From an uncultured bacterium (lineage in GTDB: Bacteria; Patescibacteriota; Minisyncoccia; Phycocordibacterales; UBA1006): a DNA stretch of 52,270 bases. Positions 3,428 through 51,097 of this stretch are shown in pieces. The notes beneath the pieces are model-generated. The model made no database searches. It had not been told where the DNA came from and worked only from the letters and a program-made list of their open reading frames with translations. The position numbers and the translations under genes are program-made. Location: assembly GCA_937868685.1 (NCBI GenBank), contig CALMMZ010000181.1, forward strand, positions 1 to 52,270. The letters run 5' to 3'. Every line of letters starts with the position of its first letter. Positions within the stretch are counted from its first letter, which is position 1.

Positions 3428-3488
3428 TTGAAGTTTTCTTTCCTTTGAAAGGGAAAGAGAAATCATTTTTTTGAAGAGCGAATTGTAC

Positions 3489-3513
3489 TTTCTGTTCCCC
3501 GCGGGGAAAGAAA
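3489..3513. terminator. intergenic palindromic hairpin
   Basis: tttctgttccccgcggggaaagaaa, nearly identical to the 3067..3092 copy. Follows the stop of 3529..3864(-). Confidence 0.55.
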
Positions 3514-3911: not shown

Positions 3912-4496
3912 TTAGAAGTAACTTGCAGTTGCTTCTGCCCAAGGTTTACTTGGTTTTTTCAATTGGCTATTGACTCGTTCATGGAGGAGATAACTCCAAT
4001 GAAAGAGTTTAACATTCGAGGCAAAGAATTGATCAATGGGGTGATCAGCTAAATTACCAGAAAGATGAGCACGACATTTCGGACAAGGTAAACAAAATTG
4101 AAGACAGCTCACGAAAGCTTTGTAACTTTTCGCATATTGGGTCGTATTATTATAATTTGCTGCAAACCAATGGATCATTTTCCAAGTGGGGTGCGACCAA
4201 ACAGTGATAGTAATATTTGAATCGGCATACTTTTTCAATAATTCATCATATTGTACCATCACAAAATGATGGACATACTTATTCACTTCTTGATGAAGAT
4301 TGAACACCCATTCGAAAGCCTTTTGTGAATAGGGATATTTAGCGTAAGCTTCTGTCAACCATTTCTTCTCCTGAGCTGGCATCATTGTAAGAGATGACTC
4401 AAAGAGACATTGAAAAGGTTGAATCATCTCCGCTCGGTAATACGACGCCATTGCGTAGAGCATTTGAAAGAAATCAACCAACGGAAAAATAGCCAT
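3912..4496 (-). CDS. Erv1/ALR-family FAD-linked sulfhydryl oxidase
   Basis: 194 aa. C-x-x-C redox motif in LPCPKCRAHL, then HWSYLLHERVNSQLKK (Erv1/ALR-type H...N core). Confidence 0.75.
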   Translation of the reverse strand: MAIFPLVDFFQMLYAMASYYRAEMIQPFQCLFESSLTMMPAQEKKWLTEAYAKYPYSQKAFEWVFNLHQEVNKYVHHFVMVQYDELLKKYADSNITITVWSHPTWKMIHWFAANYNNTTQYAKSYKAFVSCLQFCLPCPKCRAHLSGNLADHPIDQFFASNVKLFHWSYLLHERVNSQLKKPSKPWAEATASYF

Positions 4497-7887: not shown

Positions 7888-7948
7888 CACTTTAACCCCT
7901 TGAAGGATGTTTAACCCCTTGAAGGATGTTTAACTTGAGTTAAACATC
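7888..7948. repeat. GTTTAAC-family repeat array (2.5 units) in a divergent intergenic region
   Basis: cactttaaccccttgaaggatg tttaaccccttgaaggatg tttaacttgagttaaacatc. The last unit forms a palindrome. Confidence 0.8.
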
Positions 7949-13501: not shown

Positions 13502-15148
13502 ATGTCGCTTTACGAAGTCAAATTCAAAGGAGAACAAAAAGGTCCATGGATCCCTTTTCGTGGAGAAGCTACTGAAGTTATTGAGTCGGGATTTCGCGTG
13601 TTAAACAAACCAGTTTTGTTATATGAACATGCTTATGTCGGAGAAAAGATTAATCCAAATGACAAAACTTTTCCAGATGAATTTATAGTACAATTATTTT
13701 ATAACTATGATCAACAGAGTTTTATTCGTAATAAGAATTTACTCCGCATGCTAGAGAAGATGTCACAAAATTTATCTGCCGAAGGATTTTTCAGCATGGC
13801 ATCGATTCCTTTTGCTTATCGATTTTATCCTAGTCCTCGTTCTTTTAACAAACAAACGAACACAAGTTATGCACTCATGAGATCACCCCCTGTTTGGAAG
13901 CATATTCTCGATACTTCAACTTCTCGTTTTCATTGGTTTATGTTTAATGCGTTGTCAGCTCTTTTTTATCTCCATAAATTGGGTATTGTACATCGTGCTA
14001 TTTCACCAGAAACTGTCTATTTTTCAAAGGATAATAATGACTATTCACCTTCTATTTTTATTCACGATTTTAGCTCGGCTTGCTGGTTAGAAGATCAAAC
14101 TGATCTCACTCAAATTGTAAGATGTCGTGAATCACCTCCAATGTATGATTATACTGATCCTGTTTTATTGCCAAAATCAAGACAATTATTGCAACAACAA
14201 CGAGATAAAAATAAAAGTAAGATCTCTTCCGAAGAAGAAAAGAAAATTCGTGATGACATGGATGGTCTCAAGAAGAAAATGGCCGAGTTAAATAAAGAAA
14301 TCAACGACGCAAAAGGAAATGATCGTACTCGTCTAGAAGGACAGCGAAAAGAACTAAGAAAAAGATTGGGCGAACTTGGGGGAAAATTACACGGTCGTCC
14401 AGGAGAAGGAGAACGAATGTCACAAGCAGTGTACGCTCCTTACACTGATAAATCTGATGTATTTTCAATGGGGATGTTATTTTATCAAATTGCAACTCAA
14501 GGCATCGGTTATACCAATGAAGCGCTCGATCCTTGGGATCCAACCAGAGAAAATACTATTAGTATGCCTCCAGATCAAATTGAAGTTTTTAACGCGCGTA
14601 AACAGCGTTTAACTCGTACAAATCTTTCGCCATTGTTGCGAGATATCATTTTGGGGATGATTCAACCTGAACATAAAGATCGCTTGGATGCTGGTATGGC
14701 TTTAAAGAAATTAATTTCTGCACACAATCCTGAGATGCAGATTCCCGATTTACCACCTTTTACCTCGGGAGCACCACAAAAAGAAATTCTACAATATCTT
14801 GGTTCGCGAGAATATCCCGAATTACAAGGAGCAAATATTAATACTCTGGCTAAAATGATGACGCAAAAATGGGCTGATGTTGACGCAAAAATTGACCATC
14901 AAGATCCAGCTAGTGAATTTTATGGATCATTCCGAGAAAGTAGGTTAAATCCCTCTCCTCCACCAGCTGAATTTTGGGCTTACTGCGTTGGTAAAGGTTT
15001 GTGTTACACAGCTGCGGTGGGAATTCCTCTTGTGGTTGGTGGTTTAAATCCAGTTGCTGCGGGTGTTGGATTGGCGACCGCCGGACTTGGAGCCGCCGGT
15101 GTACACAATCGATTGTTGCAAAAGATATCGGAGCGATGGAGACGGTAA
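13502..15148 (+). CDS. protein-kinase-like protein, probable pseudokinase, with a coiled-coil insert and a Gly-rich C-terminal hydrophobic segment
   Basis: 548 aa. LHKLGIVHRAISPETVYF (HRD replaced by HRA), IHDFSSA (DFG-like), SDVFSMGMLFYQI (subdomain IX-like). Charged insert KISSEEEKKIRDDMDGLKKKMAELNKEINDAKG. C-terminal GIPLVVGGLNPVAAGVGLATAGLGAAGV. Confidence 0.6.
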   Translation: MSLYEVKFKGEQKGPWIPFRGEATEVIESGFRVLNKPVLLYEHAYVGEKINPNDKTFPDEFIVQLFYNYDQQSFIRNKNLLRMLEKMSQNLSAEGFFSMASIPFAYRFYPSPRSFNKQTNTSYALMRSPPVWKHILDTSTSRFHWFMFNALSALFYLHKLGIVHRAISPETVYFSKDNNDYSPSIFIHDFSSACWLEDQTDLTQIVRCRESPPMYDYTDPVLLPKSRQLLQQQRDKNKSKISSEEEKKIRDDMDGLKKKMAELNKEINDAKGNDRTRLEGQRKELRKRLGELGGKLHGRPGEGERMSQAVYAPYTDKSDVFSMGMLFYQIATQGIGYTNEALDPWDPTRENTISMPPDQIEVFNARKQRLTRTNLSPLLRDIILGMIQPEHKDRLDAGMALKKLISAHNPEMQIPDLPPFTSGAPQKEILQYLGSREYPELQGANINTLAKMMTQKWADVDAKIDHQDPASEFYGSFRESRLNPSPPPAEFWAYCVGKGLCYTAAVGIPLVVGGLNPVAAGVGLATAGLGAAGVHNRLLQKISERWRR

Positions 15149-18054: not shown

Positions 18055-19482
18055 ATGTCAAAAACTCTTGAATGGTTATATTCACTTGAACCAAAAAGAC
18101 AAAAAAGACCTTCAACTCCAGAAAGAAAAATATTTTTATTGAAATATATTGCAACTACTGATCGTAATAATCTTTGTTCTTTCTTTCATGTGCTTGATGT
18201 CTTAGATATGTATGGTGTATGGAATCAGGAGAGCTTAAACATGGCACAATACCTTGTCGCTCAATACTATTTTATAGATAATGGTATGAAAGTTTCAGAA
18301 GAAAAGAGTGCTCACTTTTTTGTTAAATTAGCTTGTTCGTTGCACTTTCCTTCATTTTTTTACTATATTACCTTGCTGAGCAAGCAAAAAAAGTGTCATA
18401 AAGATGAAATTGATACATACTTTAATGTAGCACTATTGTTAATGTTATCAAATGATTATTACAAATATTCGAACTATCAGTTGATCCAAAGTGTTTTTCT
18501 TTTATTTGAAAAGAAAGAAGGGCCTGTATCATTAAAGAAGATTTTTTCAGATATTCTACTTCAGGCTGAAGGGCAGTTCCCAACTGAGATGTTAATTCTT
18601 TGTCGAAAAGTACAACAAAACTTTATGACATTGACTGAACAACCACTTGAAGAAGTTAAGTATATTGACTTAGTTTGTCCACAACGAATTTATTCTTTCG
18701 ATCAAAAAGATTTCCCTTTTTCACTCAACTCTTTACGACTTGGTGTTGGTGTATTAGGAACAGTTTATCAAGATAAAAACGGAAATGCTGTTAAGAGATG
18801 TAAATGGGAATACAAATCGGATGTTATGAGTGAAACATCGTTAGTTCGTTTTTTGGATCATCCCAATTTAATTCAACATTATTGTGTTTCTGTTCACAAC
18901 ATGGTACATCTTCGCTTTCATATTGAAATGCCCCGTTTTCCATTTAATTTAAATGATAAGTTTAATGAGATACGTGGTAATTCAAAAATTATTAAACCTA
19001 TTATTGCACAGGTACTAAAAGCTTTATTGTATCTTCACGAGCGCTCGATCCTCCACCGAGATGTTAAATTATCAAATATATTGTTTGATGAAAAATATCA
19101 CGCCGTTTTGTGTGATTTCTCTTTGGCTAAATTTTCTCCAATTCAAGAGAAGGCCGAAAGACTTGTACAAACTTATGAGTATCGAGCTCCTGAAGTATAC
19201 ACCAATAAAATCTCCACCGACAAGATGGATATTTGGTCGGTGGGAAGTGTATTAATTCATCTTTATTCGTCAGCCCGGTTTATACAACATTTAAAAGGAA
19301 TCAATTCAATTGGTGAAAGAGAATGGGGCATCATGATTCGAAAAGAAGATTGGTGGGAACCATTGGTTGAAATCCAAGATCTCTTGTTGAAAGATTTAAT
19401 TCGACAGATGGTCAAACAAGATCCCTCCCAACGTTATTCAGCACATGAGTGTTTACAACATGAATACTTTTACAAGAAATAA
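18055..19482 (+). CDS. Ser/Thr protein kinase with a ~220-aa N-terminal helical (cyclin-like?) domain
   Basis: 475 aa. GVGVLGTVY (G-loop), AVKRCK, LHERSILHRDVKLSNILF (HRD...N), LCDFSLAK, TYEYRAPEV, DIWSVGSVL. The N-terminal TPERKIFLLKYI motif is shared with ORFs 28919 and 30877. Confidence 0.8.
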   Translation: MSKTLEWLYSLEPKRQKRPSTPERKIFLLKYIATTDRNNLCSFFHVLDVLDMYGVWNQESLNMAQYLVAQYYFIDNGMKVSEEKSAHFFVKLACSLHFPSFFYYITLLSKQKKCHKDEIDTYFNVALLLMLSNDYYKYSNYQLIQSVFLLFEKKEGPVSLKKIFSDILLQAEGQFPTEMLILCRKVQQNFMTLTEQPLEEVKYIDLVCPQRIYSFDQKDFPFSLNSLRLGVGVLGTVYQDKNGNAVKRCKWEYKSDVMSETSLVRFLDHPNLIQHYCVSVHNMVHLRFHIEMPRFPFNLNDKFNEIRGNSKIIKPIIAQVLKALLYLHERSILHRDVKLSNILFDEKYHAVLCDFSLAKFSPIQEKAERLVQTYEYRAPEVYTNKISTDKMDIWSVGSVLIHLYSSARFIQHLKGINSIGEREWGIMIRKEDWWEPLVEIQDLLLKDLIRQMVKQDPSQRYSAHECLQHEYFYKK

Positions 19483-22665: not shown

Positions 22666-22680
22666 CTCCGGAGGTGTTTA
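22660..22680. repeat. GTTTAAC-family copy
   Basis: gtttaactccggaggtgttta spanning the 12-bp gap between convergent stops 22665 and 22678. Confidence 0.55.
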
Positions 22681-23142
22681 TTTCTTCCAATCATTAATAT
22701 GTTTATTACAATATCTTTCTGGAAATGGTAAAGCTGGATTATATAATCGAAGTTGTTCAGCCCTCTTTAAAAGTGTATTATAAATTTGTCCAAATTCAGC
22801 AGGATGATCTTCATCATCTGGTGGCCCTTTAATATGGCCTGGTGTTAAAACATGTGCAATTTCATGTAAATAAACATACACAAGGAAGTTTTCAAAATAC
22901 GGAGATTGACTATCATCATGAACACAAAGATAAACTTCTGTTTTTTCTAAAGCATATGTATTGGAGGAATGGGGATAAACATTTACCTGGGCAATAATTG
23001 GATGTACTGGTATTAATTTTTGCTTTAATTCTTGCAAACGTTGATAATCATTAGCATTTTTCTTGTGTACCACTGGATGATAACGATTTCGCCAAATCAA
23101 CCAGACAAGCAAAAATAAACCAAAGAAAAGGATTTCTTTCAT
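22678..23142 (-). CDS. putative zinc metallopeptidase (HExxH) with an N-terminal membrane anchor
   Basis: ATG 23142 (MKEILFFGLFLLVWLIW). The longer ORF start would contain the palindrome at 23163..23178. VYLHEIAHVLTPGH contains H-E-x-x-H. Confidence 0.55.
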   Translation of the reverse strand: MKEILFFGLFLLVWLIWRNRYHPVVHKKNANDYQRLQELKQKLIPVHPIIAQVNVYPHSSNTYALEKTEVYLCVHDDSQSPYFENFLVYVYLHEIAHVLTPGHIKGPPDDEDHPAEFGQIYNTLLKRAEQLRLYNPALPFPERYCNKHINDWKK

Positions 23143-23162
23143 TTTAGAAAGGGGAAAAATTT

Positions 23163-23178
23163 TTATCCCGCGGGATAA
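23163..23178. terminator. intergenic palindromic hairpin
   Basis: Perfect palindrome ttatcccgcgggataa after the stop of 23187..23570(-). Confidence 0.5.
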
Positions 23179-23186
23179 GAATTTCA

Positions 23187-23570
23187 TTACTTCTGGTTAT
23201 TTTGGTGAGATATTTCTACTCCACCTGATTTTACAGAAGGTTTTATTGGAATCTCAGATTCTTCATTCATGGCAACATCTTCCGTGATATGTGACGATTC
23301 ATCTTCATCTTCATGTGAGGTGTCATCATCTGCGTATGAAATGTCTCCATTGTCTTTAATTTCATAATATTCCAACCTTCTTTTTTCCGGAGCTTTCCTC
23401 GGTGGCAGTTTTTCTTCATTGTTTGTTTCTCGACAAGAACAATGCCAGACCGGACGTTGACATGAAATACAATAAAAATTAACAGGCAACATACTTCCAA
23501 CTCGGGCACAACTGCCGCATAACTGGGAAAAGCTGTCAATTTCCGTCTGACAGCTTGAACAAGTATTCAT
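23187..23570 (-). CDS. zinc-ribbon protein with an acidic C-terminal tail
   Basis: 127 aa. CSSCQTEIDSFSQLCGSC and CISCQRPVWHCSC, then DDDTSHEDEDESSH. Confidence 0.5.
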   Translation of the reverse strand: MNTCSSCQTEIDSFSQLCGSCARVGSMLPVNFYCISCQRPVWHCSCRETNNEEKLPPRKAPEKRRLEYYEIKDNGDISYADDDTSHEDEDESSHITEDVAMNEESEIPIKPSVKSGGVEISHQNNQK

Positions 23571-23635: not shown

Positions 23636-24337
23636 TTAATTTTCATCAGAAGGTATAATCATCCATTTACCTTCTTTTGCTAAAAAGGGCAATGAAGTCA
23701 AACCGTTGTAATCATCTACTATCAAATTAGAATTCATACAATGTAACCTTCCTTTATATCCACCCGAATTTTCAATAATATCATTCTCCAAAGATTTCTC
23801 TTCGACGTGGGTAGTAAAATCATCATAAAAACTAAAGATTCCAAGGTAGTAAATGTCTTCATCTTTTTGAAATCTTTTCGGGTACCACTTTCGCATTTGT
23901 TCAGCCAGAGAAGTTGGCATCAACGTCACAGACAAATGGTTCTTAATTTCATTAAAGAGATGTCCATATTGTTCGAGATAAATTTTAATTATCTCCCGTT
24001 CAAAAGAAAGGTCAGGCTGTTGCTTTGATAATACACTAAAAGGTAAACCTTCACTTTCATATTCTGAAATTGAGTCTTTTTTCTCTTGATACTTTTTCAT
24101 TCCCTCTCCTTCTCGAATAAAAGAAAGAAGTTGTGGACACAATTTTAAGAAATCCGAATCACATTGAACTCCATACATCCAATTTAACATAGTGCTATCA
24201 CCTTCCAAAATACCAATCAAATAATCAGAAGGAATTTGCAATTCTTTTTGAAACTTTGCAGAGAGAAAAGGACGAAAGGTATCTAAAATCTCTGAGGCTG
24301 AACGAACACAGCCATAAAACAGAATTGCACTTAACAT
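23636..24337 (-). CDS. hypothetical protein
   Basis: 233-aa ORF from ATG 24337. TCAATTTT lies at 24380..24387 upstream and a hairpin at 23610..23633 downstream. Confidence 0.5.
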   Translation of the reverse strand: MLSAILFYGCVRSASEILDTFRPFLSAKFQKELQIPSDYLIGILEGDSTMLNWMYGVQCDSDFLKLCPQLLSFIREGEGMKKYQEKKDSISEYESEGLPFSVLSKQQPDLSFEREIIKIYLEQYGHLFNEIKNHLSVTLMPTSLAEQMRKWYPKRFQKDEDIYYLGIFSFYDDFTTHVEEKSLENDIIENSGGYKGRLHCMNSNLIVDDYNGLTSLPFLAKEGKWMIIPSDEN

Positions 24338-24379: not shown

Positions 24380-24387
24380 TCAATTTT
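24380..24387 (-). promoter_or_regulatory. AAAATTGA early-promoter-like motif
   Basis: TCAATTTT overlaps the kinesin stop codon. Lies upstream of minus-strand ATG 24337. Confidence 0.5.
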
Positions 24388-26872
24388 CATTTTGAATTGG
24401 AGTTACAATATTTCTTTCCACAACAGGTGTTTTCAAAATGCGTAATTGTGATTCCAAATCTTTAATCTTTTTCTCATAATCAAGTTGACGTCGTTTAAAG
24501 TCACTCGTTACTTCTTGTAGCTTATTGTTATTATTTCGTAAATGATCTTCTAGAGTCTTGATATGTCTTGAACGACCTTCCAATTGAGCTTTCAATTCTT
24601 CTTCTACAATAGCCAATTGAGAATATTTGTCATGTAAACGATGTAATTCTTCTTTTGTTTGAGTATCTTCTTCAGTTGTTTTCCATGTTTTTAACATATT
24701 TTCACGTAAGGTATTATTTTCTTCACACAAGGAAGCTACTTTTCCTCTCAACCCTCCATTCTCTTCCTCCAAAGTTAATGACCTTTGATTAGCAAATTTA
24801 ATGGCTTGATCGGCAGTCTCTTCTTTTTCTTTCAAACTAGACTGAGATTGTTCCAATTCTTTTTCTAAAGTATAAATTCGTTCTTGAATTATGGTTTGAT
24901 TTTGTCGCAAGTTCTCGATTTCCAGTATCTTTTGTCCTAAATCATCCTGGCAATGACGTAAATCATCTTGATATTTATTTGCTTCTGAACGAACTTTTTC
25001 GATTTCAGATTTAACCACGCTAATACCTTTTTGTAATTCAGTGACTAAAGCAGTCTTACTGTCAAGTTCTTCGGCCAATTTTTGGAATTGATCCAATGAT
25101 TCTTCATAATTGGCCGGTGTTAAAGTTGGTTGGACAATGAGATTATATTCTTTCTTGAAATCTTTGACATCAATCCCTTTTTTCTCACAAATGTCAATCA
25201 GACGATTTAAATCGCTGGTCAATGCAGAAATAATGATTTGTTGTGTTGCTAATTTTTCATTTGCCTCGTAAAGCAATCGTTTATATTCTTCAATATTCAT
25301 TTCTAAATTCACCACTGGTTTATTGAGAATAGTTTGTGTAATTGCCCCAAATCTTAGTGTCGACAAGGTTTCTTCATAATTAAATTTAGCTGGTGAACAG
25401 GTGATCACAAGATGAGTTTTACTATTCCCACCCAATGAATCAGTCAAGAGCCGTGTCAACTTTGAATCGCGATAAGGAATAAAAGGTTTCTTTTCAGCCA
25501 AACAGCGAATAACAATACCTAATGTTAATAGAGATTTATTGGTGGCATTGGCCTGCTTGAGTAATAAACCTTCGGCTTTGGTCTTGGCAATTTTTTCTGA
25601 ACCAGCCAAATCGACAAAGACAATACGAGATGTAATCTTTTTTCCTGTTTTCACATCAGTTTGTTGTACGTGCATCACTAAGATTGAATGACTCCGAGAA
25701 GAATGAGCATTTAAAGCGGTTGCGGCGACTGTTCGATTTAATTCACCTTTTCGCATAATTCGGACAGCATCTTCAAAACAATTGACATAAGTCTCGGTTA
25801 CTTCTTCAATCCACAATCCACGAAAGCGATCTTCACGAATTTTAAGATCATCTCTCAAGGGTGCTAATAAATCGCGAATTTTTTCTAAATAAATTTCCAC
25901 ATAAGACATACTTACAAGAAATTCATATCCTTTTTTGTTGCGAATTGCGGTAAAGAGATCTTTAATCAAACGGGGTACCACTCCCATTTCACTTTCTGTT
26001 TTCCATAATTCACCTTCTTGAGAAAGAAGATCGGCATTGTCGACTGCTGCCGCATAACCGGTCATGGTAGTTGTTTTACCTGAATTATGAGTCACAACTC
26101 CATCTGCAAGTAAAAACCTCGCAGGACATCCTTCAATCGGTTTTAATTGAAAACCAGCATATAATCCCATACTCAATTCCTCAAATTGAATGGGGTAGAC
26201 GATCAATTGTTTTTTATGTTGTCTGACACCAAGATATCCACGTGGATTCTTTAAGACTTCTTTCAAGGGGATATCCACAATTTTACCTTGTAATGATAAA
26301 GTTAGAACGTGATCAAGATTGACTGTATAAAAACTTTTACTTTCAGTGTCAATTACTTTGTACATATGAGAAATACCAGTATATAATTTGATTACTTCAC
26401 GAAGATTTCCTTGATCATCTAGTAATTTGTCTTCGATTTTGATATCTCTGGCTTGAATCGGTGAACCATCAGCCAGCATCACTAAAGTATCAGGAGATAA
26501 ACAAGCCGATTGACCGTAAGCGAAAATAGTGGCATTGTACCCTTGAAGAATCTCATGAATTAAGGGTTTTCCCACTGCAGTGTATACTTGTTCCTGAGTC
26601 GCTTTCTCATCAAAGACTTTATCATAGAAATATTTATTTTCTTTGGTTTCTTGTGGGAGATGTACAACATTTCCTTCCAAACGAATCATTCGAGTTGCAC
26701 CATTTTTCAATTCTGTTTCATTACAAGGTCGAAAACGACAAAAAACTTTGACATTTTTGTCTTCAACCGAGGTTTGCTTATCGGGGAGTTTTTCTTTCTC
26801 ACCTTTTGGTTCTCGTGGCGAAAGAACTTTATTTTTTCCCTTCATAAAAAAGAGATTTTCTTTTCTTAACAT
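24380..26872 (-). CDS. kinesin-like motor protein (N-terminal motor, C-terminal coiled coil) interrupted by a mini-intein
   Basis: 830 aa. VKVFCRFRP, IFAYGQSA[140-aa insert]SGKTTTM (P-loop), NAHSSRSHS (switch I), VDLAGSEK (switch II), YRDSKLTRLL. Residues from about 540 onward are heptad-rich (Glu/Leu/Lys/Gln). Confidence 0.9.
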   Translation of the reverse strand: MLRKENLFFMKGKNKVLSPREPKGEKEKLPDKQTSVEDKNVKVFCRFRPCNETELKNGATRMIRLEGNVVHLPQETKENKYFYDKVFDEKATQEQVYTAVGKPLIHEILQGYNATIFAYGQSACLSPDTLVMLADGSPIQARDIKIEDKLLDDQGNLREVIKLYTGISHMYKVIDTESKSFYTVNLDHVLTLSLQGKIVDIPLKEVLKNPRGYLGVRQHKKQLIVYPIQFEELSMGLYAGFQLKPIEGCPARFLLADGVVTHNSGKTTTMTGYAAAVDNADLLSQEGELWKTESEMGVVPRLIKDLFTAIRNKKGYEFLVSMSYVEIYLEKIRDLLAPLRDDLKIREDRFRGLWIEEVTETYVNCFEDAVRIMRKGELNRTVAATALNAHSSRSHSILVMHVQQTDVKTGKKITSRIVFVDLAGSEKIAKTKAEGLLLKQANATNKSLLTLGIVIRCLAEKKPFIPYRDSKLTRLLTDSLGGNSKTHLVITCSPAKFNYEETLSTLRFGAITQTILNKPVVNLEMNIEEYKRLLYEANEKLATQQIIISALTSDLNRLIDICEKKGIDVKDFKKEYNLIVQPTLTPANYEESLDQFQKLAEELDSKTALVTELQKGISVVKSEIEKVRSEANKYQDDLRHCQDDLGQKILEIENLRQNQTIIQERIYTLEKELEQSQSSLKEKEETADQAIKFANQRSLTLEEENGGLRGKVASLCEENNTLRENMLKTWKTTEEDTQTKEELHRLHDKYSQLAIVEEELKAQLEGRSRHIKTLEDHLRNNNNKLQEVTSDFKRRQLDYEKKIKDLESQLRILKTPVVERNIVTPIQNEN
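26084..26503 (-). mobile_element. mini-intein (140 aa, no homing-endonuclease domain) inside the kinesin P-loop
   Basis: Residues 124-263 of the kinesin ORF. Starts CLSPDTLVMLADGSPI (block-A-like, Cys1). Has NLDH (block-B-like). Ends FLLADGVVTHN, followed by Ser (+1). Removing it restores GQSASGKTTTM. Confidence 0.8.
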
Positions 26873-26895
26873 TTTGAAAAAAATAAAAGTTCTTC

Positions 26896-27306
26896 ATGGA
26901 ATTTCTCGAACGAAATCGAAATTTGGCCGATCAATCACGCTTTGCTGAGGCAATGCGAAAAATTCAACAAAAAAGTCTGGAAGAAAGACGGGCAGAATGT
27001 AAAAGAATTTTCGTCAAAAAGCCTTCTAATATTCCAGTAATCGTGATTCCCGCCAAAGGAATTCAACTCGACAAGTTGAAATACATTTGTGACAATGATA
27101 TGACGATAGAAAAATTAAACTATGTGATTGTCAGGCGAATTATTTCTTCTACACCAGTGCCTGAAAGAGCCTACTTTTTTATTACCGAGGATAAACAAAT
27201 TCCACCAACTGATATGTTAATTCGAGACCTCTATCGTAAACAAAAAAATGAAGATTTTACTCTCCATCTTTACTTAATTGGTGAAGATACTTTTGGTTGT
27301 GATTAA
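26896..27306 (+). CDS. Atg8/LC3/GABARAP-family ubiquitin-like protein
   Basis: 136 aa. Collinear with Atg8/GABARAP: SLEERRAECKRIFVKKPSNIPVIV (compare [23 protein letters not shown]), LDKLKYICDNDMTIEKLNYVIVRRI (compare [25 protein letters not shown]), AYFFITEDKQIPPTDMLIRDLYRKQKNEDFTLHLYLIGEDTFG-CD (compare [42 protein letters not shown]). Confidence 0.85.
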   Translation: MEFLERNRNLADQSRFAEAMRKIQQKSLEERRAECKRIFVKKPSNIPVIVIPAKGIQLDKLKYICDNDMTIEKLNYVIVRRIISSTPVPERAYFFITEDKQIPPTDMLIRDLYRKQKNEDFTLHLYLIGEDTFGCD

Positions 27307-27328: not shown

Positions 27329-28108
27329 ATGAACATTCAAGCAGTCTGGCAAGATTTTCAAAACAACAACGACCGTTATCGTCAATTGTTAAATAAATTT
27401 GAAATTAATATTCCCCCCGATGTGAAGTCTCTCGAATCGTTTCGCCAATGGGTGGCAGTTGATCCTATGCCTCCATCAGAAAAAAGATTTAAAGTTTTAA
27501 CTCAACCCGAAGATGAAAAATCCTTAATTCCTCGAGCAACTGCTCGTGTAAATGAAATTCAAGAAGCAACCAAGCGAAGAGCTTTTGACGATGGTTTATA
27601 TTTGGATTATGGCTGTAGTGATGGAAAAATGACTCTTGAAATTGCAAAAAAGTTAAACATTCCGTACAACAACGTATACGGAGTTGATAAAGCTGAATTC
27701 ACTGGAGTTGAAATTAAACCAGTCCTTGATAAAGCTAATTTTATACTACTTGATCGAGAAAGTGGTGTACTCCCTTTTGGTAATGAGAGATTTGATCTGA
27801 TTTCAGCTTTTCAAGTCTTACATCATATTCGAAATCCTGAACCAGTAATCAGAGATCTCGTTCGCATTTTGAAGAAGGATGGCATTTTTCTGTTACGCGA
27901 GCATGATGCGCAACCAGAAGATCATCGTTTAATTGATTTTGAACATTTGATTTATCCTCATTCCAACATCGAGACCAATTACATTGGTAATTATCATTCT
28001 TCCGTCGAATGGGATGCTTGGTTGATTAAAGCAGGTTTAATTCCAATCGGATTTACCTTTACAAAAGGACAAACCTTTTATTATATGAAAGCTTACACTA
28101 AAAAATAA
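27329..28108 (+). CDS. class-I SAM-dependent methyltransferase
   Basis: ATG 27329. Motif I YLDYGCSDGKMT, and FDLISAFQVLHHIRNPEPVIRDLVRILKKDGIFLL (Methyltransf_11-like). Confidence 0.7.
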   Translation: MNIQAVWQDFQNNNDRYRQLLNKFEINIPPDVKSLESFRQWVAVDPMPPSEKRFKVLTQPEDEKSLIPRATARVNEIQEATKRRAFDDGLYLDYGCSDGKMTLEIAKKLNIPYNNVYGVDKAEFTGVEIKPVLDKANFILLDRESGVLPFGNERFDLISAFQVLHHIRNPEPVIRDLVRILKKDGIFLLREHDAQPEDHRLIDFEHLIYPHSNIETNYIGNYHSSVEWDAWLIKAGLIPIGFTFTKGQTFYYMKAYTKK

Positions 28109-28130
28109 TTAAGTTTCCGCGGAAACTTAA
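28109..28130. terminator. intergenic palindromic hairpin shared by convergent genes
   Basis: Perfect 22-nt palindrome ttaagtttccgcggaaacttaa spanning the gap between stops 28108(+) and 28127(-). Confidence 0.6.
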
Positions 28131-28888
28131 TGAATGAGACGAGAGCGAATATCCTTCCAAATTAAAGTTGGATAGATGACACATGTTGTGTGAGCTCCTT
28201 CGCAGATAACTAGATTTACTTGAGGAATTTCTGCAATTCCATACTCAGGCGGAACATGAAAGTCATAACGGCTGACTACACAACAATAGTTATGTTTCGA
28301 CTGTTTTAATTTCTCTCTTAATGAAGAAATAATATTACAATCTGGATGCATTGCAAGATATCTTTTTTCTTTGAAAGGAAGAAAACGTAAAGCGGGAGCT
28401 CCTTGTAAAGGTGCATTCAAGGTGATTACTTTAGTATTATAAGGAATCGTATGTTCGGCCATCCATGCTGCTAACAATCCTCCCATTGATGTTCCTATCA
28501 AAGCAGAAATACGAATTCGGTTATCAATCAAGAGAGAAATTAATCGATCAAGAAAGCGGACATAATCATCAAAGGATAAATCTTTCCGAGATAAATTAGG
28601 CAAGATAATTGAATGTTGTGGAAAAGTTAAGCGAAACTCAGGTATTGAATATCTCCATTGTTGTGGACAACTTGAACTTCCATGAATGGCAATTACAACT
28701 GAATCAGACAATGGACGATCGGGAAAAGAAGTAAAATTTTCCGCGTCAACTTCTAGCACATCGTCATCATCAAATTTCTTTTGACGACAGCGGAGACACA
28801 AGTAATACAATTTAATAGGAATTTCTGAAATTTCATGCCAAATTCCTCGCCAACTTAAATGTTGACGAGAAAATTGAAAGAAGCTCAT
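28127..28888 (-). CDS. alpha/beta-hydrolase (lipase/esterase-like)
   Basis: ATG 28888. VVIAIHGSSS (oxyanion-hole-like HG) and nucleophile elbow LIGTSMGGLLAAW (G-x-S-x-G). Confidence 0.6.
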   Translation of the reverse strand: MSFFQFSRQHLSWRGIWHEISEIPIKLYYLCLRCRQKKFDDDDVLEVDAENFTSFPDRPLSDSVVIAIHGSSSCPQQWRYSIPEFRLTFPQHSIILPNLSRKDLSFDDYVRFLDRLISLLIDNRIRISALIGTSMGGLLAAWMAEHTIPYNTKVITLNAPLQGAPALRFLPFKEKRYLAMHPDCNIISSLREKLKQSKHNYCCVVSRYDFHVPPEYGIAEIPQVNLVICEGAHTTCVIYPTLIWKDIRSRLIH

Positions 28889-28918
28889 CTTTAACAAACA
28901 AAAATTAAGTTTTAAATC

Positions 28919-30319
28919 ATGGACCGAGATGATGCTTTTTTGTCAAAAGCTTTACAGCGAAACATAAAACGGAGATATTTGTTTCCTCCCAAAGTGCCAC
29001 CTGTTTTTACATCTCGTGAAGAACGAATAACATATATTTTAGAAATTTATGGTTATATGACATTGCGAAAAAACGATTTTCCCTACGCCGCTGCAATTCA
29101 ATCTATCTGCTACAGCGATACTTTACCTTCAATTGACCGTGAGCTTCTCTTTGGATGTATTGGAATGGGCATTTGTTTGGAAGAAGCTTCGTTGGATGAT
29201 TGTTATTTATATGAAATTTTCTTGGCATCAGGCCATTCCTTCGACGAAGAGGGTAATGAAAAATTTCGTTTGACCCTTAAAGCTATTGATCAATTTCCCA
29301 ACATCTATCTTGAAACACCAGATCGAATGTTATCCCTGTTTTGGAAGGATTATCTTTCACTTGAAATGTATCAAAAAATTTTACTTCATTTATGCCATCA
29401 TCCCTTTGAGGGGAAGAAAACTGCACTTCCCTTCTTACAAGAACGGGAGATTCAACCTTTTCTTTCCTTTGAAAAAATTGTAGAAAAAAAGATACCACGT
29501 TGGAAATTTCTCCCTCATCAAGAAGACGACAGTCTTTATCAAGGTGCTCATTCACAAACTAGAAGATGGGTCTCAGCAGAAGATCCCGAAACTTACATTG
29601 TCAAAACTTATGGTAATCAACTTGAAATGGAGGCGGGCATTCGAGAACTTTATTCTTTAACTATTTTTGATCATCCAAATATTGTCAAGTGTCATGGTTG
29701 GTCTATTTCCGAGGATTTTACTCAAATTCAATTTTTCTTGGAAGATGGTGGAGAAGAAATTGATTGTCGTTACACCACTTTAAAATGGTTGAAGAAATAT
29801 ACACCTCAGATTTTAAGAGCTCTCCGTCATATTCACACTCGAGGATTTGCTTACCGTGATTTGAAAACTCCCAATCTTGTCTTTCGTCGTGGTAAAATTA
29901 CATTAATCGATTTTGGCATGGTTCGTCGAACAAATTGTGTTGGTGGAAGTCCTTACATGATGTCTTTTGCAATTGGACCCGCGGAAATCTTTGCAGGAAG
30001 TTGCATTTATTGGGGAGCAGTTGATATCTGGTCATTGGGTATGTTACTTTATGTTTTAACACAAAAGAAGTATCCACTTGGAGTAAAAGGAATGGCCTCT
30101 TATCGGGGAAAATATTTATATACTAAAGCTTTTCTTGAACAATTAACACCAGAAGAAGAACTTGAATTTAAGCAGATGAAGAAAAATAATACATCTTTAA
30201 TAATTGACGGAAAAGTGTCTGATATTCAAAATCAAAAATTAAGAGCTTTGATTAAACGATGTTTTTCCGCCAGAGCACCTTCGGCAGGTGAATTATTGCA
30301 AGATCCTTTCTTTGAATAA
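28919..30319 (+). CDS. cyclin-box-like N-terminal domain fused to a Ser/Thr protein kinase
   Basis: 466 aa. N-terminal SREERITYILEIYGYM ... FRLTLKAIDQFPNIYLETPDRMLSLFW (cyclin-box-like L-x-F-x-L-x-x-P-T-P-x-x-F-L pattern). Kinase motifs: IHTRGFAYRDLKTPNLVF, LIDFGMVRR, VDIWSLGMLLYVL. Confidence 0.75.
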   Translation: MDRDDAFLSKALQRNIKRRYLFPPKVPPVFTSREERITYILEIYGYMTLRKNDFPYAAAIQSICYSDTLPSIDRELLFGCIGMGICLEEASLDDCYLYEIFLASGHSFDEEGNEKFRLTLKAIDQFPNIYLETPDRMLSLFWKDYLSLEMYQKILLHLCHHPFEGKKTALPFLQEREIQPFLSFEKIVEKKIPRWKFLPHQEDDSLYQGAHSQTRRWVSAEDPETYIVKTYGNQLEMEAGIRELYSLTIFDHPNIVKCHGWSISEDFTQIQFFLEDGGEEIDCRYTTLKWLKKYTPQILRALRHIHTRGFAYRDLKTPNLVFRRGKITLIDFGMVRRTNCVGGSPYMMSFAIGPAEIFAGSCIYWGAVDIWSLGMLLYVLTQKKYPLGVKGMASYRGKYLYTKAFLEQLTPEEELEFKQMKKNNTSLIIDGKVSDIQNQKLRALIKRCFSARAPSAGELLQDPFFE

Positions 30320-30830: not shown

Positions 30831-30867
30831 AAAAATGATTTTACTTTTTGGAAGAAAACTGTTAGAA

Positions 30868-30875
30868 TCAATTTT
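30868..30875 (-). promoter_or_regulatory. AAAATTGA early-promoter-like motif
   Basis: TCAATTTT in the 46-bp divergent spacer. Lies upstream of minus-strand ATG 30830. Confidence 0.5.
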
Positions 30876-30876
30876 T

Positions 30877-32241
30877 ATGGAGTCACACTTCTTTTCTTTC
30901 AAAAAAGAAACTCTGAGTCCTCCAGAAAGGACCGAGGGTATTGAGTATATTCTCAAGGTCTGCGATGAATACAAAATGAATGTTTATACATCTTTGATGG
31001 CTATTGAATTTTTTGACCTTCTTTCATTCAAAATGAAAGAAAAAGATACTGTTCCCTTTGTTTGTGTTTACTTAGCTTTTCTCTTTCGTGGCTCTGAAAA
31101 TCAAAACTTTTTAAATGGTCCAGAGTGTATCAAATATGAAGAAGAATTGTCTTCTTTGTGTTTTGAAGTAGTAGCTTCATTCAAAGGACCTATTTTTAGA
31201 CCTACTGCAATGAGATGTTTATCACTCTTCTTACAAAGAAATTGTACTTCCTTTGAAGAGAATATGATCCTGCTAGGTTATTTGAAACAAAAAGTTACTT
31301 CTTGTCAAGAGATCTGTGAACTCGTCTCTCCCCTCTTACCCGAAGAAAAGAGAGTATCATTTTCCACTTTTGTAGAAAATGAAATAAAACAAACTTCCTC
31401 GAAACCCTTTTACCGGAAATACAGTCCAGGAAAAAGAATTTGTTGTCTAGGTGAAGGGGCTCATGCGAAAGTTTATTGTTGTTTGGAAGATGAAACAACT
31501 AAAATATACACTGCTGTCAAAGTCTATAACATTGGTGAGGGAGAAGAATTGAACGCACTTCGAGAAATTGCGTTGTTAAGTTCGGTATCTCATCCTTCAA
31601 TTGTGCCATTTTTTGGTTGGAGTTTTGAACCGAAAGATCAAAAAGTTTACCTTTATTTGGGACAGGGATATAGGGTGCCTCCTCATGATCTCTCTGAAAA
31701 ATGGATTCAACAATATGGTTATGAAATATTGCAAGCGATTGATTATCTTCATCAAAGAGGATTTGTCCATCGCGATTTAAAACGAACGAATGTAGTTTAT
31801 TCAGATGACAAAAAGCATGTCTGGTTGATTGATTTTGGTATTTCTCGTGAAGAACAAGCTCATGGAATGAGTGCAAAAATGGCCCCTCAAATTTTAATGC
31901 CTCCTGAAATGATTGAAAATTTAGATTATGATGCCTCGATTGATATTTGGCAACTCGGGCTCTTTTTTGCCGGAAGTATTACCAAAGACGAATCTTTTCC
32001 CTCGGCATTGACTGATACAGATTTAACTTATCAATTGTTTTATTTTAAAAACAATCTTTTGATTCACGAAAATTCTTACCGACCTACATATCGACTCTCC
32101 AATATTGTCAATCCTACTTTGAGAGACTTTATTGCTCGTTGTCTTACCGATTATTACCTTCAAAGACCAAAAAGTCATGAATTACTTTCACATCCTTTCT
32201 TTAAAAGTTCGATTCCAGAAAGATCTCTCAAAGACATTTAA
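30877..32241 (+). CDS. cyclin-box-like N-terminal domain fused to a Ser/Thr protein kinase
   Basis: ATG 30877 avoids most of the overlap with the divergent HD gene. N-terminal PPERTEGIEYILKVCDEYKMNVYTSLMAIEFFDLLSF ... EEELSSLCFEVVASFKGPIFRPTAMRCLSLFL (cyclin-box-like). Kinase motifs: LGEGAHAKVY, AVKVY, LHQRGFVHRDLKRTNVVY, LIDFGISRE, IDIWQLGLFF. Confidence 0.8.
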   Translation: MESHFFSFKKETLSPPERTEGIEYILKVCDEYKMNVYTSLMAIEFFDLLSFKMKEKDTVPFVCVYLAFLFRGSENQNFLNGPECIKYEEELSSLCFEVVASFKGPIFRPTAMRCLSLFLQRNCTSFEENMILLGYLKQKVTSCQEICELVSPLLPEEKRVSFSTFVENEIKQTSSKPFYRKYSPGKRICCLGEGAHAKVYCCLEDETTKIYTAVKVYNIGEGEELNALREIALLSSVSHPSIVPFFGWSFEPKDQKVYLYLGQGYRVPPHDLSEKWIQQYGYEILQAIDYLHQRGFVHRDLKRTNVVYSDDKKHVWLIDFGISREEQAHGMSAKMAPQILMPPEMIENLDYDASIDIWQLGLFFAGSITKDESFPSALTDTDLTYQLFYFKNNLLIHENSYRPTYRLSNIVNPTLRDFIARCLTDYYLQRPKSHELLSHPFFKSSIPERSLKDI

Positions 32242-32248: not shown

Positions 32249-32272
32249 TTTCTTTTCTCGCGGGAAAAGAAA
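32249..32272. terminator. intergenic palindromic hairpin
   Basis: Arm tttcttttc, loop tcgcgg, arm gaaaagaaa, after the kinase stop at 32241. Confidence 0.5.
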
Positions 32273-32288
32273 AAGTATTTTATTTCCC

Positions 32289-41658: not shown

Positions 41659-41746
41659 TTTAACCAGTGAGGAGAACGTTTAAACAATTTTGACTTTTTA
41701 TTAAACGTCCTTTCGGGGTTAAACGTCCTTTCGGGGTTAAACGTCT
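41659..41746. repeat. GTTTAAC-family repeat array, mixed orientation, in a divergent intergenic region
   Basis: tttaaccagtgaggagaacgtttaaac, then on the opposite strand ttaaacgtcctttcgggg ttaaacgtcctttcgggg ttaaacgtc. Confidence 0.8.
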
Positions 41747-41762: not shown

Positions 41763-42677
41763 ATGAAGAAGTTAACCCGGCAGGATTTAATTGAACGGCT
41801 TCGAAGTGTTGGGTATACATCACTTTCACGCCTTCGAAAAGATGAATTGGAAGACATGTACAAGAAGATTGAACAAAATATAAAACGAGAGGAGAGTAAA
41901 CTTTCTTCAGAAGAAACAAAAGTCTCTTTTCGAGAACCTCTTGAAAGTGTGAAAATATCCATTCCTGCTTCATTACGGGAATCAACATCTTCGAAAAATG
42001 TGGTTGAAAAGAAAAAACCTCCGACTATTTATTATGAAGAAGAATTTGAGAAACTTCGGTTTGATGGAATTTCAAAATATGTCAAACTTTCACAGTTAGG
42101 TCAATCGGGAAAGGAAGGAACTACATATTTAGTCATGGATCCAGCTTATGCAGGCAAAAGATATGCTATGAAATGTTTTCGTAAAACAAAATCGGAAAAT
42201 CGTATTGCCGAGGAGGCCCATTATCAATGGTTAGTAGCGAAATATGGTATTGCCCCGCAAGTCTATCAATTTAATACAAAAGAAAAGTACATTTTGATGG
42301 AACCTTTGGATCAAACCTTGTTAAGTATTTTGACAGAAAATAAAGGTATTTTTCCCAAGAAACTTCAACAAGAAGTTATCGAACTTTACAAAAAGCTCGA
42401 TGAAACGGGAATTGCTGTCAACGATGGAAATCCAAGAAACATCATGGAGAAAAATGGAAAGTTGTATATGATTGATTATGGGCTGGCCAAAATGGCCTCT
42501 TCCCCTTCTTTCCGGAAATTGAAAACTCCTAATTTGTCTCTTCTTCCAAATGCTTTATTATATTATGTTAAAGAGAGGTTTGATACAACAAGTTGGGTAG
42601 AAATTCGTCAACATGTACCACCCGAATCTCTCCAACATTATGATAAGATTTATCGAATGAAGAATCCAAAAAAATGA
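41763..42677 (+). CDS. small atypical protein kinase with an N-terminal SAP/HeH-like motif
   Basis: 304 aa. LTRQDLIERLRSVGYTSLSRLRKDELEDMY (SAP/HeH-like). GQSGKEGTTYLV, YAMKCF, GIAVNDGNPRNIM, YMIDYGLAK. Confidence 0.65.
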   Translation: MKKLTRQDLIERLRSVGYTSLSRLRKDELEDMYKKIEQNIKREESKLSSEETKVSFREPLESVKISIPASLRESTSSKNVVEKKKPPTIYYEEEFEKLRFDGISKYVKLSQLGQSGKEGTTYLVMDPAYAGKRYAMKCFRKTKSENRIAEEAHYQWLVAKYGIAPQVYQFNTKEKYILMEPLDQTLLSILTENKGIFPKKLQQEVIELYKKLDETGIAVNDGNPRNIMEKNGKLYMIDYGLAKMASSPSFRKLKTPNLSLLPNALLYYVKERFDTTSWVEIRQHVPPESLQHYDKIYRMKNPKK

Positions 42678-49236: not shown

Positions 49237-49266
49237 TTTTTTCTTTCCTTGCGAGGAAAGAAAAAA
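49237..49266. terminator. intergenic palindromic hairpin
   Basis: Arm ttttttctttcct, loop tgcg, arm aggaaagaaaaaa, starting one nt after stop 49236. Confidence 0.6.
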
Positions 49267-51089: not shown

Positions 51090-51097
51090 AAATGATT

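Follow-up and report, generated by a model that had tools for sequence, protein, structure and literature searches.

A divergently oriented kinesin and Atg8 gene pair retained across an uncultured giant-virus clade, with an intein in the P-loop of the kinesin

The window (the whole stretch of DNA analyzed, 52,270 nucleotides) contains a kinesin gene and an Atg8 gene arranged head to head. The first-pass annotation had named both genes and described this layout, and it was borne out on both points. The minus-strand product matched Pfam Kinesin (E=1.9e-95), the plus-strand product matched Pfam ATG8 (E=2.5e-16), and the head-to-head arrangement recurred in 7 further diverged loci. The locus has the following features.

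24380..26872, minus strand: kinesin ORF, 830 aa (Pfam Kinesin)
24395..24412, minus strand: C-terminal motif NIVTPI (clade consensus NIFTPLKY), a lead only (clade alignment)
24431..25294, minus strand: predicted coiled-coil stalk, aa 527-814 (AF2 secondary structure and pLDDT)
25076..25105, minus strand: candidate LIR-like motif EESLDQ-F596-Q-K-L599, after the hinge, a lead only (clade alignment)
25301..25324, minus strand: kinesin-1-type neck linker NKPVVNLE, aa 517-524 (alignment with the fish kinesin-1 heavy chains P0088, P0103, and P0112)
26084..26503, minus strand: mini-intein of 140 aa (aa 124-263) that interrupts the Walker A P-loop (Pfam Hom_end_hint)
26873..26895, no strand: divergent spacer between the longest ORFs, 23 bp, AT-rich, without the AAAATTGA octamer
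26846..26895, no strand: divergent spacer if the kinesin starts at Met10, 50 bp
26896..27306, plus strand: Atg8 ORF, 136 aa (Pfam ATG8)
27295..27297, plus strand: conjugation glycine G134 of Atg8 (alignment with the terminal FG of GABARAPL2 and ATG8f)
27329..28108, plus strand: SAM-dependent methyltransferase (Pfam Methyltransf_23, 4.7e-16)
28127..28897, minus strand: alpha/beta-hydrolase-like ORF, a weak match (Abhydrolase_6, 3.2e-5)

The two starts had been placed 23 bp apart. This holds for the longest ORFs, but the spacer is probably 50 bp. The kinesins of the 77%-identical relatives P0003-5 begin with MKAKSK, which aligns with Met10 of the window kinesin (MKGKNK), so the real start is probably Met10, at position 26845. 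The distance alone is unremarkable, because the 13 divergent pairs of this compact giant-virus genome include spacers of 4, 23, 30, 38, and 40 bp, and such short distances are ordinary in it. The adjacency itself exceeds chance, given its recurrence in the 7 other loci.

The claim that the two genes share a compact divergent control region gained no positive support. The AAAATTGA early-promoter octamer usually lies at -45 to -50 in the window genome, but neither gene was preceded by it in 7 of the 8 pair-bearing lineages, and no common promoter motif was found in the upstream regions of the 8 paired lineages. Two independent octamer-type promoters, with octamers at -45 to -50, cannot fit into the spacer. 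From this spatial constraint alone, with a spacer of 23 to 50 bp, we infer that the two control regions must overlap. A sigma-70 and terminator scan, which is not applicable to this virus, gave no enrichment. The octamer suggests Mimiviridae-type transcription, but an iridovirus has a motif similar to it. No named virus was among the matches of a PolB search and cluster look-up.

The match of the window kinesin to the Pfam profile falls in two stretches, and its closest named relatives are KIF5/kinesin-1. The catalytic motifs are intact, with switch I (SSRSHS) at aa 391-396, switch II (DLAGSE) at aa 421-426, and a P-loop that reads GQSA-SGKT only once the intein is removed. The profile match and all three motifs, Walker A being read with the intein removed, identify the product as a predicted member of the kinesin superfamily. 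In the neck region, ILNKPVVNLEMNIEEYKRLL of the window kinesin aligned with IKNSVTLNVELTAEQWKKKW of fish KIF5. A neck linker of the kinesin-1 type implies a plus-end-directed N-kinesin, and an N-terminal motor, this neck linker, and a neck coil were all present. The viral motor is thus predicted to be kinesin-1-like, plus-end directed, and probably dimeric. In the AF2 model of the ORF (mean pLDDT, 74), the stalk comprised the neck coil (aa 527-564), a disordered proline-rich hinge (aa 578-589), and long helices (aa 589-727 and 739-814); it gave weak Tropomyosin/SMC-type profile matches. The stalk is much shorter than that of KIF5, and the tail is short. For the kinesin-1 tail elements (light-chain binding region and autoinhibitory IAK motif), comparison by eye gave no more than a loose resemblance of the NI(F/V)TP(L/I)K sequence of the viral clade to the IAK motif, QIAKPIRP in fish KIF5.

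The P-loop is interrupted by an intein, a feature absent from the first-pass account of the kinesin. The insertion reads GQSA/C124...H262-N263/S264-GKT, and the inserted domain matched Hom_end_hint at 3.7e-10 (40.6 bits versus a cut-off of 32.1). The residues for splicing were present (Cys1 as C124, block B N185-x-x-H188, terminal H262-N263, and S264 at +1) and were identical in every aligned kinesin mini-intein. About 30 metagenomic kinesins carried an intein at the identical site, while in more than 20 clade relatives the P-loop was uninterrupted, GQ(T/S)(G/S)SGKT, the empty alleles reading GQTGSGKT. Long alleles with two LAGLIDADG motifs occurred in the relatives P0006, P0039, P0040, P0064, and P0084. 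The 140 aa of the window intein contain no LAGLIDADG motif; because the homing endonuclease domain is absent, this is a mini-intein but still an intein. Its closest solved relatives, and its best matches in the PDB, were the PI-SceI and Prp8 inteins, with alignments that begin at residue 1, and AF2 predicted an all-beta domain (pLDDT, ~80-89). The splicing residues, the HINT profile and fold, the insertion site, and the empty alleles all indicate a class-1 PI-SceI-like HINT intein. Its site was considered as that of the VMA1 intein and rejected as such, since the VMA1 site, which we take to be YVG/CGERG, is not Walker A.

Between the window and L006, the intein differs by 6 synonymous changes and 1 nonsynonymous change. 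Judged by such changes, intein and extein are under purifying selection, which bears indirectly on the predicted splicing. Because the intein splits the P-loop, the annotated kinesin ORF is a precursor that is nonfunctional until spliced. The PI-SceI-type mini-intein would have to leave the P-loop by splicing before the kinesin could hydrolyze ATP.

The Atg8 ORF covered positions 1-104 of the 104 in PF02991 with 60.2 bits (cut-off, 27). It matched 111 PDB sequences at E values up to 1e-3 (best, 8.5e-17), including GABARAPL2, ATG8f, and Atg8, with an alignment that runs through F133-G134. The whole-domain match and the aromatic-Gly pair indicate a predicted GABARAP-like member of the Atg8 family. 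Two residues, Cys-Asp, follow G134. The conjugation glycine was kept in all 8 paired lineages and formed the exact C-terminal end in 5 of them; 57 of 80 other viral Atg8s were likewise Gly terminal. The window and L006 copies differ by 4 synonymous and 0 nonsynonymous changes, indicating that the Atg8 gene is under purifying selection. About 12 of 16 positions of the LIR-docking pockets were conserved or conservatively replaced, in an alignment read by eye against what we take to be the HP1 and HP2 residues of GABARAP. The nonconserved positions, from GABARAPL2 to the window Atg8, are P52 to D66, F104 to T122, and R28 to N45. The single-sequence AF2 model of this protein was poor (mean pLDDT, 47). 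Atg3, Atg4, and Atg7 are not encoded within the window; the host would have to supply the machinery that lipidates the viral Atg8. A word-index homologue search with Atg8 matched only itself, and IMG/VR single-protein locus searches gave no match for the kinesin or Atg8.

Synteny in related viral genomes had been proposed as a check on the pair. Within one uncultured viral clade, 8 of the 12 lineages sampled kept the pair (window/P0002, L011, L012/13, L014, L015/16, L020, L102, and L184), and flanking junctions were lost. These lineages span kinesin identities of 48 to 81% and PolB identities of ~50 to 76%, with head-to-head spacers of 23 to 128 bp. Of 11 diverged loci, 7 preserved the kinesin-Atg8 junction, versus 2 of 22 for flanking junctions (Fisher p=0.002); sampling was centered on the kinesin, and the loci lack phylogenetic independence. 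Adjacency and orientation are retained beyond background synteny. Relative to PolB/RNR, the pair is inverted as a unit between the window and L014/L020.

In a rough tree, the window lineage branches first, followed by P0028, and lineages without the pair fall within groups of lineages that have it, indicating that the pair is ancestral; the trees are neighbor-joining trees without support values. All eight paired Atg8s group in a single clan separate from the 80 other viral Atg8s, showing a single origin in the sequence comparison. Kinesin and Atg8 divergence are correlated (r=0.66), with Atg8 evolving much faster than the kinesin (28 to 45% versus 50 to 80% identity). No adjacent Atg8 was found within 6 to 8 kb of the kinesin in P0027, P0029, P0018, and P0020, even with a clade HMM. 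A divergent Atg8 hidden among the 111- to 196-aa genes upstream of the kinesin in the pair-lacking loci was also considered and rejected, as the clade HMM found none over six-frame ORFs. An adjacent Atg8 is thus missing in at least three separate lineages that retain the kinesin. Since four clade lineages keep the kinesin without one, the motor is not obligately tied to an adjacent Atg8. No kinesin was found near the other giant-virus Atg8 loci (0/80), and no Atg8 was found near further kinesin loci outside the clade (0/103, many of those loci being probably eukaryotic). Another adjacency, of Erv1 and an RNase-H-like gene, was retained in 4 of 4 cases, and Atg8 in other viral lineages has recurrent neighbors (RPB2-like and deaminase-like, by our own reading of the sequences) that seem unrelated in function. 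Both observations indicate that synteny by descent is common.

The methyltransferase and hydrolase beyond Atg8 had been pointed out as following it immediately. The methyltransferase assignment is solid. That of the hydrolase is weak, its Abhydrolase_6 score of 25.1 bits lying under the gathering cut-off of 26.3. Membership of either gene in a module was not upheld, since outside the window lineage their linkage to the pair was confined to L011, its closest relative. PHROGs returned nothing for the unannotated neighbors.

A scan of the kinesin tail for LIR motifs, also proposed earlier, gave one candidate, F596QKL, which is weak, partly conserved, and located at a predicted helix start. The acidic FxxL was present in 6 of the 8 pair-bearing kinesins and was replaced (F to L) or deleted in the other 2 and in all 4 pair-lacking kinesins. 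The F596 motif lies in the first turns of the helix in the AF2 model (pLDDT, ~59). EYNLI (aa 575-579) and the C-terminal NIFTPL were rejected as LIRs, because the lineages do not conserve the pattern [WFY]xx[LIV] at either site. There are precedents: the tail of cellular KIF5A binds GABARAP and GABARAPL1/2 (PMC12172243), and virions of Emiliania huxleyi virus contain host Atg8 (PMC4233938). The functional coupling of the viral kinesin and Atg8 is putative.

As a whole, the reading that we favor falls a little short of an even chance: the genes form an anciently linked divergent pair, and Atg8-tagged membranes or virions would be moved by the viral kinesin. The interdigitated control region would express both genes and thereby hold kinesin and Atg8 together. 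The host Atg7/Atg3 machinery would attach the viral Atg8 to membranes for virus assembly or exit. The viral kinesin could couple to it directly, via its stalk or tail, or through a host LIR adaptor, and would carry Atg8 membranes or virions outward on microtubules, to the periphery of the cell. A bolder form, which we consider quite unlikely, is a self-contained viral transport kit. Here Atg8 would mark a membrane (a virion envelope precursor, a factory membrane, or an exit vesicle), and the motor, active after splicing, would bind Atg8 directly, for instance via the acidic FxxL at the hinge, without a host adaptor or light chain. If true, the two genes would form the first motor-plus-cargo-tag pair encoded by a virus and a minimal system for studies of Atg8-dependent microtubule transport.

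The pair could instead be a frozen accident, an explanation that we hold to be somewhat unlikely: the adjacency arose once, the roles of kinesin and Atg8 are unrelated, and the junction outlives its neighbors for structural reasons, because almost all breakpoints within 23 to 50 bp of interleaved promoters and 5' ends would inactivate one gene. Tiny spacers are indeed the rule in the window genome, and octamers at -45 to -50 would fall inside or against the partner gene. The Erv1/RNase-H-like adjacency, the seemingly unrelated neighbors of other viral Atg8s, and the three or more lineages that lack an adjacent Atg8 and have not lost the kinesin also fit. However, equally tight junctions (4 to 40 bp) were not retained, as the flanking count of 2/22 against 7/11 shows, and in L011 the spacer has grown to ~128 bp with the pair still intact. 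That cell biology independently connects kinesin-1 with the GABARAP family (PMC12172243) also speaks against unrelated roles.

Timing alone might be what the two genes have in common, with Atg8 as an autophagy decoy or modulator and the kinesin positioning the virus factory or exporting virions. Such an Atg8 would soak up Atg4/Atg7/Atg3 or LIR receptors and blunt antiviral xenophagy. The diverged part of the LIR-docking surface (D66, T122, and N45), the much faster evolution of Atg8, and the wide occurrence of viral Atg8 without kinesin and of viral kinesins without Atg8 agree with this, but a glycine kept in 8/8 paired lineages and exposed in 5 fits a conjugated protein better than a pure sink, and a decoy role alone gives no reason for the retention of the junction. 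We regard it as rather improbable. It is very improbable indeed that the pair was captured jointly or repeatedly from a cellular host and that its recurrence reflects repeated transfer, not retention. Both genes are ultimately eukaryotic in origin, and viral kinesins have been placed within eukaryotic lineages (10.1101/2023.07.11.548585). Nevertheless, the paired Atg8s make up a single clan, their kinesins make up a single clade, and the divergence of the two is correlated. In addition, no Atg8 lies near any of the 103 further kinesin loci scanned outside the clade, and intronless head-to-head copies 23 to 67 bp apart would be an implausible arrangement in a eukaryotic donor.

Viral kinesins and viral Atg8s were previously catalogued separately, and the pair yields a testable hypothesis for both at once. 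Its retention across family-level viral divergence suggests that giant viruses may carry their own tools to tag membranes and transport them along microtubules, an idea that fits the need of a coccolithovirus for host Atg8 for release.

In cells, the Atg8 family is linked to kinesin-1 by an adaptor, as in LC3-FYCO1-kinesin-1. The linkage of KIF5A to GABARAP (PMC12172243) likewise couples a plus-end motor of the kinesin-1 class to Atg8-family membranes. The cellular kinesin-1 and Atg8 genes, in contrast, are unlinked, and contact is made through an adaptor or via a 73-aa tail specific to KIF5A. The tail of the viral kinesin differs from that of KIF5A and is much shorter.

Motors encoded by Nucleocytoviricota are known from the giant-virus kinesins (Kijima et al. 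2021, bioRxiv 10.1101/2021.03.14.435220; BsV, PMC5871332), for which a role in carrying virions or membranes along microtubules was proposed. That literature describes co-occurrence with viral myosin and makes no mention of conserved divergent pairing with Atg8 or of a P-loop intein. Giant-virus kinesins were also reported by Ha et al. 2021, as cited in PMC9732441. Virus-encoded Atg8s have likewise been described (Karki and Aylward, bioRxiv 10.1101/2023.07.11.548585; PelV-1 gene 394, PMC12338748), but the paired Atg8s stand apart as a long-branch clan, and none of the 80 others adjoins a kinesin. In Emiliania huxleyi virus (EhV), a large algal DNA virus, an autophagy-like process is needed for release and host Atg8 is found in virions (Schatz et al. 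2014, PMC4233938). EhV thus uses the Atg8 of its host, whereas the virus studied here encodes its own beside a motor gene.

The intein shares the class-1 HINT plan of the PI-SceI (VMA1) and Prp8-type inteins, with Cys1, block B N/TxxH, and a terminal HN followed by Ser. Like them and the Anaeramoeba kinesin intein (PMC10710043), it occupies a highly conserved site and has long alleles with LAGLIDADG motifs. The full-length, mini, and empty alleles at one site form a natural series for the study of intein homing and decay. P-loop insertions and the viral spread of inteins have been described (PMC10710043). The host protein of the window intein is a viral kinesin, for which PMC10710043 lists no counterpart. 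Cytoskeletal exteins were treated as new in 2023 (PMC10710043), and the P-loop intein described here extends inteins to a viral cytoskeletal motor.

The kinesin and Atg8 identities proposed in the first-pass annotation were confirmed by Pfam matches to the kinesin motor (E=1.9e-95) and to ATG8 (E=2.5e-16; 60 bits, cut-off 27), respectively. For the two genes named there as following Atg8, the methyltransferase call is solid, but the hydrolase scores under the Pfam threshold. The features of this region are as follows:

24380..26872, minus strand, kinesin ORF, 830 aa
26084..26503, minus strand, intein, aa 124-263 of the kinesin ORF, P-loop FAYGQSA / CLSPDT…VVTHN / SGKTTTM
26896..27306, plus strand, Atg8 ORF, 136 aa
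27329..28108, methyltransferase

The reported separation of 23 bp is correct for the two annotated ATGs. However, the kinesins of 77%-identical relatives begin with MKAKSK, whose first residue lines up with Met10 in the window protein. Translation of kinesin therefore probably begins at 26845, which would make the spacer 50 bp long. Divergent spacers of 4, 23, 30, 38 and 40 bp occur among the 13 divergent pairs of the window. Tiny divergent spacers are therefore normal in this genome, and the kinesin-Atg8 distance by itself is not special.

The window Atg8 was too divergent for word-based search, and neighborhoods (loci, numbered L) were fetched via the metagenomic relatives of the kinesin (proteins, numbered P) instead. 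Synteny in related viral genomes was borne out, with Atg8 lying head to head beside kinesin in eight lineages, the window's included. The spacers are as follows:

Window lineage, including L006 (a 99% strain with another left flank), 23 bp
P0004/L011, about 128 bp
P0006/L012-13, 37 bp
P0007/L014, 37 bp
P0009/L015-16, 39 bp
P0008/L020, 67 bp
L102, 23 bp
P0028/L184, 27 bp

Identity among the pair-bearing lineages is 48-81% for kinesin and about 50-76% for PolB. In the gene-by-gene comparison, both genes were present in seven diverged loci and were neighbors in 7/7, while the outer neighbor of kinesin and that of Atg8 were each retained in the closest relative only. The kinesin-Atg8 junction survived in 7/11 loci versus 2/22 for the flanking junctions (Fisher p=0.002, with no correction for phylogenetic non-independence). 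With PolB and RNR as reference, the pair was flipped as one unit between the window and L014/L020. Outside the clade, no kinesin was detected within 6 kb of Atg8 in 80 IMG/VR giant-virus Atg8 loci, and no Atg8 was detected near kinesin in 103 further kinesin loci. A clade-specific HMM run over six-frame ORFs detected no hidden Atg8 in the loci lacking the pair.

In the neighbor-joining tree, the window lineage splits first, followed by P0028. The lineages that keep kinesin without a nearby Atg8 (P0027/P0029, P0018 and P0020) are nested among pair-bearing members, which makes the pair ancestral, with three or more losses. All eight paired Atg8s group in a single clan that excludes the 80 other giant-virus Atg8s and the two eukaryotic reference sequences, and the divergences of kinesin and Atg8 are correlated (r=0.66). 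Between the window and its 99% strain, the ratio of synonymous to nonsynonymous changes was 46.5:6.5 in the kinesin extein, 6:1 in the intein and 4:0 in Atg8.

A 169-aa HExxH (HEIAH) protein with no Pfam or PHROG match is encoded at 22678-23187 on the minus strand. Its homologues are located two to five genes from kinesin in 8/11 related loci, two of which are without Atg8. The gene counts as a second member of the local synteny block, though a looser one.

The window is a compact giant-virus (Nucleocytoviricota) stretch with a GC content of ~35%. Its gene set includes a family-B DNA polymerase (PolB), an RNR small subunit, an FEN/XPG nuclease, Erv1/Alr, NUDIX, and an EsV-1-7 cysteine-repeat protein, along with six or more protein-kinase genes; tRNA genes were not detected in the window. 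The best PolB relatives are all metagenomic sequences, indicating that the lineage is uncultured. One relative, the 368-kb contig CAZRRO010000005.1 (L017/L185, GCA_964602595.1), carries PolB, a D5-type primase and a viral kinesin. Its record labels it a MAG of an "uncultured Verrucomicrobiota bacterium", almost certainly through mis-binning of a contig from a giant virus. Three of the six kinase ORFs listed below, found in 52 kb, are about 470 aa long, have the kinase domain at the C terminus and appear to be paralogues. The EsV-1-7 and recombinase genes are both close to the right end of the window.

13502-15148, protein-kinase-domain ORF
18055-19482, protein-kinase-domain ORF
28919-30319, protein-kinase-domain ORF
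30835-32241, protein-kinase-domain ORF
41763-42677, protein-kinase-domain ORF
43693-44829, protein-kinase-domain ORF
46534-48252, plus strand, EsV-1-7 cysteine-rich repeat protein, 572 aa, 8 stretches, E=2.5e-106
50286-51089, plus strand, serine-recombinase (Resolvase) gene

The octamer AAAATTGA, the Mimivirus early-promoter motif (PMC5294985), is found in sense orientation within 100 nt upstream of 16 of the 58 window genes, and 11 of these copies are at -45 to -50. It was absent from the 120 nt upstream of both kinesin and Atg8 in 7/8 pair-bearing lineages, and the sole copy in these upstream stretches precedes Atg8 in L011, the closest diverged relative. The first-pass annotation held that the two genes must share a compact control region. 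The spatial part of this claim stands, since promoters here are usually 45-50 nt upstream, which forces the control elements of kinesin and Atg8 to overlap, either with one another or with the first codons of the partner; a shared promoter, however, is without positive evidence, with the octamer missing in seven of the eight lineages. At the 3' end of kinesin (24380-24387, minus strand), the final codons and stop (GAA AAT TGA) also spell AAAATTGA. This copy serves the next downstream gene (23636..24337), so that a promoter is embedded in the kinesin 3' end.

Another repeat, GGTTAAAC(A/G)TC, is present in 10 copies in the window versus 1.6 expected, with 10 attained in none of the shuffles. Copies are located at 7906-7948, 41717-41745, 2192, 2545, 15160, 36503 and 48325, among them tandem or inverted ones in two upstream regions. 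The element could mark another class of promoter or a site of protein binding. AT-rich intergenic palindromes with a GC core, such as TTCTTTTCTCGCGGGAAAAGAAA, occur at about 2650-2685, 3470-3500, 32255-32288, 49250-49290 and 51095-51128; they look similar to the hairpins that signal transcript ends in Mimiviridae.

A Hom_end_hint domain, overlooked in the first pass, splits the Pfam match to the kinesin motor in two. Because this intein splits the P-loop, the 830-aa ORF is a precursor and ATP binding is impossible before splicing. The splicing residues are all there (Cys1, block B N-x-x-H, terminal His-Asn and +1 Ser), and the AF2 model is an all-beta domain, confident everywhere except at the two junctions. 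Inteins of 137-419 aa occupy the same site in about 30 metagenomic kinesins, the long alleles bearing LLGLWLGDG and LAGLLDSDG motifs, and the site is empty, with an uninterrupted GQ(T/S)(G/S)SGKT, in more than 20 clade relatives. The nearest solved structures are the PI-SceI and Prp8 inteins, and the nearest nonkinesin relatives are within topoisomerase II, Toprim primase, AAA ATPases and Rpb1. The window PolB (8934-11912, plus strand, 992 aa) is without an intein, and the PolB of several clade relatives (L017, L019 and L020; 1302-1481 aa) contains one (Intein_splicing, some LAGLIDADG). Intein load differs by lineage and by gene. The only kinesin intein found in the literature is from the eukaryote Anaeramoeba, in a study (PMC10710043) that presents cytoskeletal exteins as a novelty and names no counterpart in a viral kinesin. 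A viral kinesin P-loop intein was not found in the searched literature, which covers part of the journals.

The spliced kinesin is 690 aa long with an N-terminal motor, and its neck linker and neck coil align with fish kinesin-1. Beyond the neck, AF2 predicts a disordered hinge rich in proline (578-589), then two long helices (589-727 and 739-814) and finally a short tip that is disordered. By analogy with its family, the protein is predicted to be a plus-end-directed dimer. An insertion of ~17 residues just past the P-loop helix (aa 140-156 after splicing; YAAAVDNADLLSQEGELWKTESE) is common to the viral kinesin clade and absent from fish kinesin-1.

The kinesin tail had been suggested as a place to look for LIR motifs, and the scan yielded one conserved acidic [WFY]xx[LIV] candidate, EESL(D/E)x-F-x-x-L, but not in all pair-bearing kinesins. 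The candidate, F596QKL in the window, immediately past the hinge, falls in the opening turns of a predicted helix (AF2). It was found in 6/8 pair-bearing kinesins (the exceptions being L102, with Phe replaced by Leu, and P0028, in which the region is deleted) and was missing from 4/4 pair-lacking kinesins. It is a suggestive lead at most, given its position in a predicted helix and a correlation with pair presence that is confounded by phylogeny.

The window Atg8 aligns with GABARAPL2, ATG8f and Atg8 up to F133-G134, followed by Cys-Asp. The C terminus is exactly at the glycine in 5/8 paired orthologues and in 57/80 other giant-virus Atg8s (L021-L100, IMG/VR). Ending at the conjugation glycine corresponds to the already processed form, for which Atg4 priming would not be needed. 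Homologues of Atg3, Atg4 and Atg7 were not detected in the window. In L020 (7934-8000), an out-of-frame ATG upstream of the Atg8 start encodes MESISNIQRSDV*, which resembles the Atg8 N termini of L012 and L014 (ME...) and points to a frameshift or to recent loss of the N-terminal part.

The best-supported reading, to which we give nearly an even chance, is an ancient divergent pair under selective retention, whose products act in one membrane-tag and motor pathway. The main rival, in which the junction is frozen for structural reasons and the two genes are functionally unlinked, appears somewhat unlikely. Conserved adjacency by descent is common, as other kept adjacencies attest: Erv1/Alr (3912-4496, minus strand) adjoins a 580-aa RNase_H_2-fold gene (4538-6280, minus strand) in 4/4 related loci holding both, and genes resembling RPB2 (14 loci) or a deaminase (11 loci), read from sequence without a domain scan, are recurrent Atg8 neighbors in other viral lineages. 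The kinesin-Atg8 junction outlives its flanks, and it is on this that the case for selection on the pair is built. Co-timed but separate roles, with Atg8 acting for example as a decoy, are the next rival and rather improbable.

Under selective retention in one pathway, host enzymes would conjugate the viral Atg8 to membranes used by the virus, and the spliced viral kinesin would move Atg8-bearing membranes or virions plus-endward. Viral kinesins and viral Atg8 are each already known separately; their conserved pairing was not found in the searched literature, which spans part of the journals. Precedents for this reading are the KIF5A tail, which binds GABARAP-family proteins (PMC12172243), and the use of autophagy by a coccolithovirus, whose release needs autophagy and whose virions contain host Atg8 (PMC4233938).
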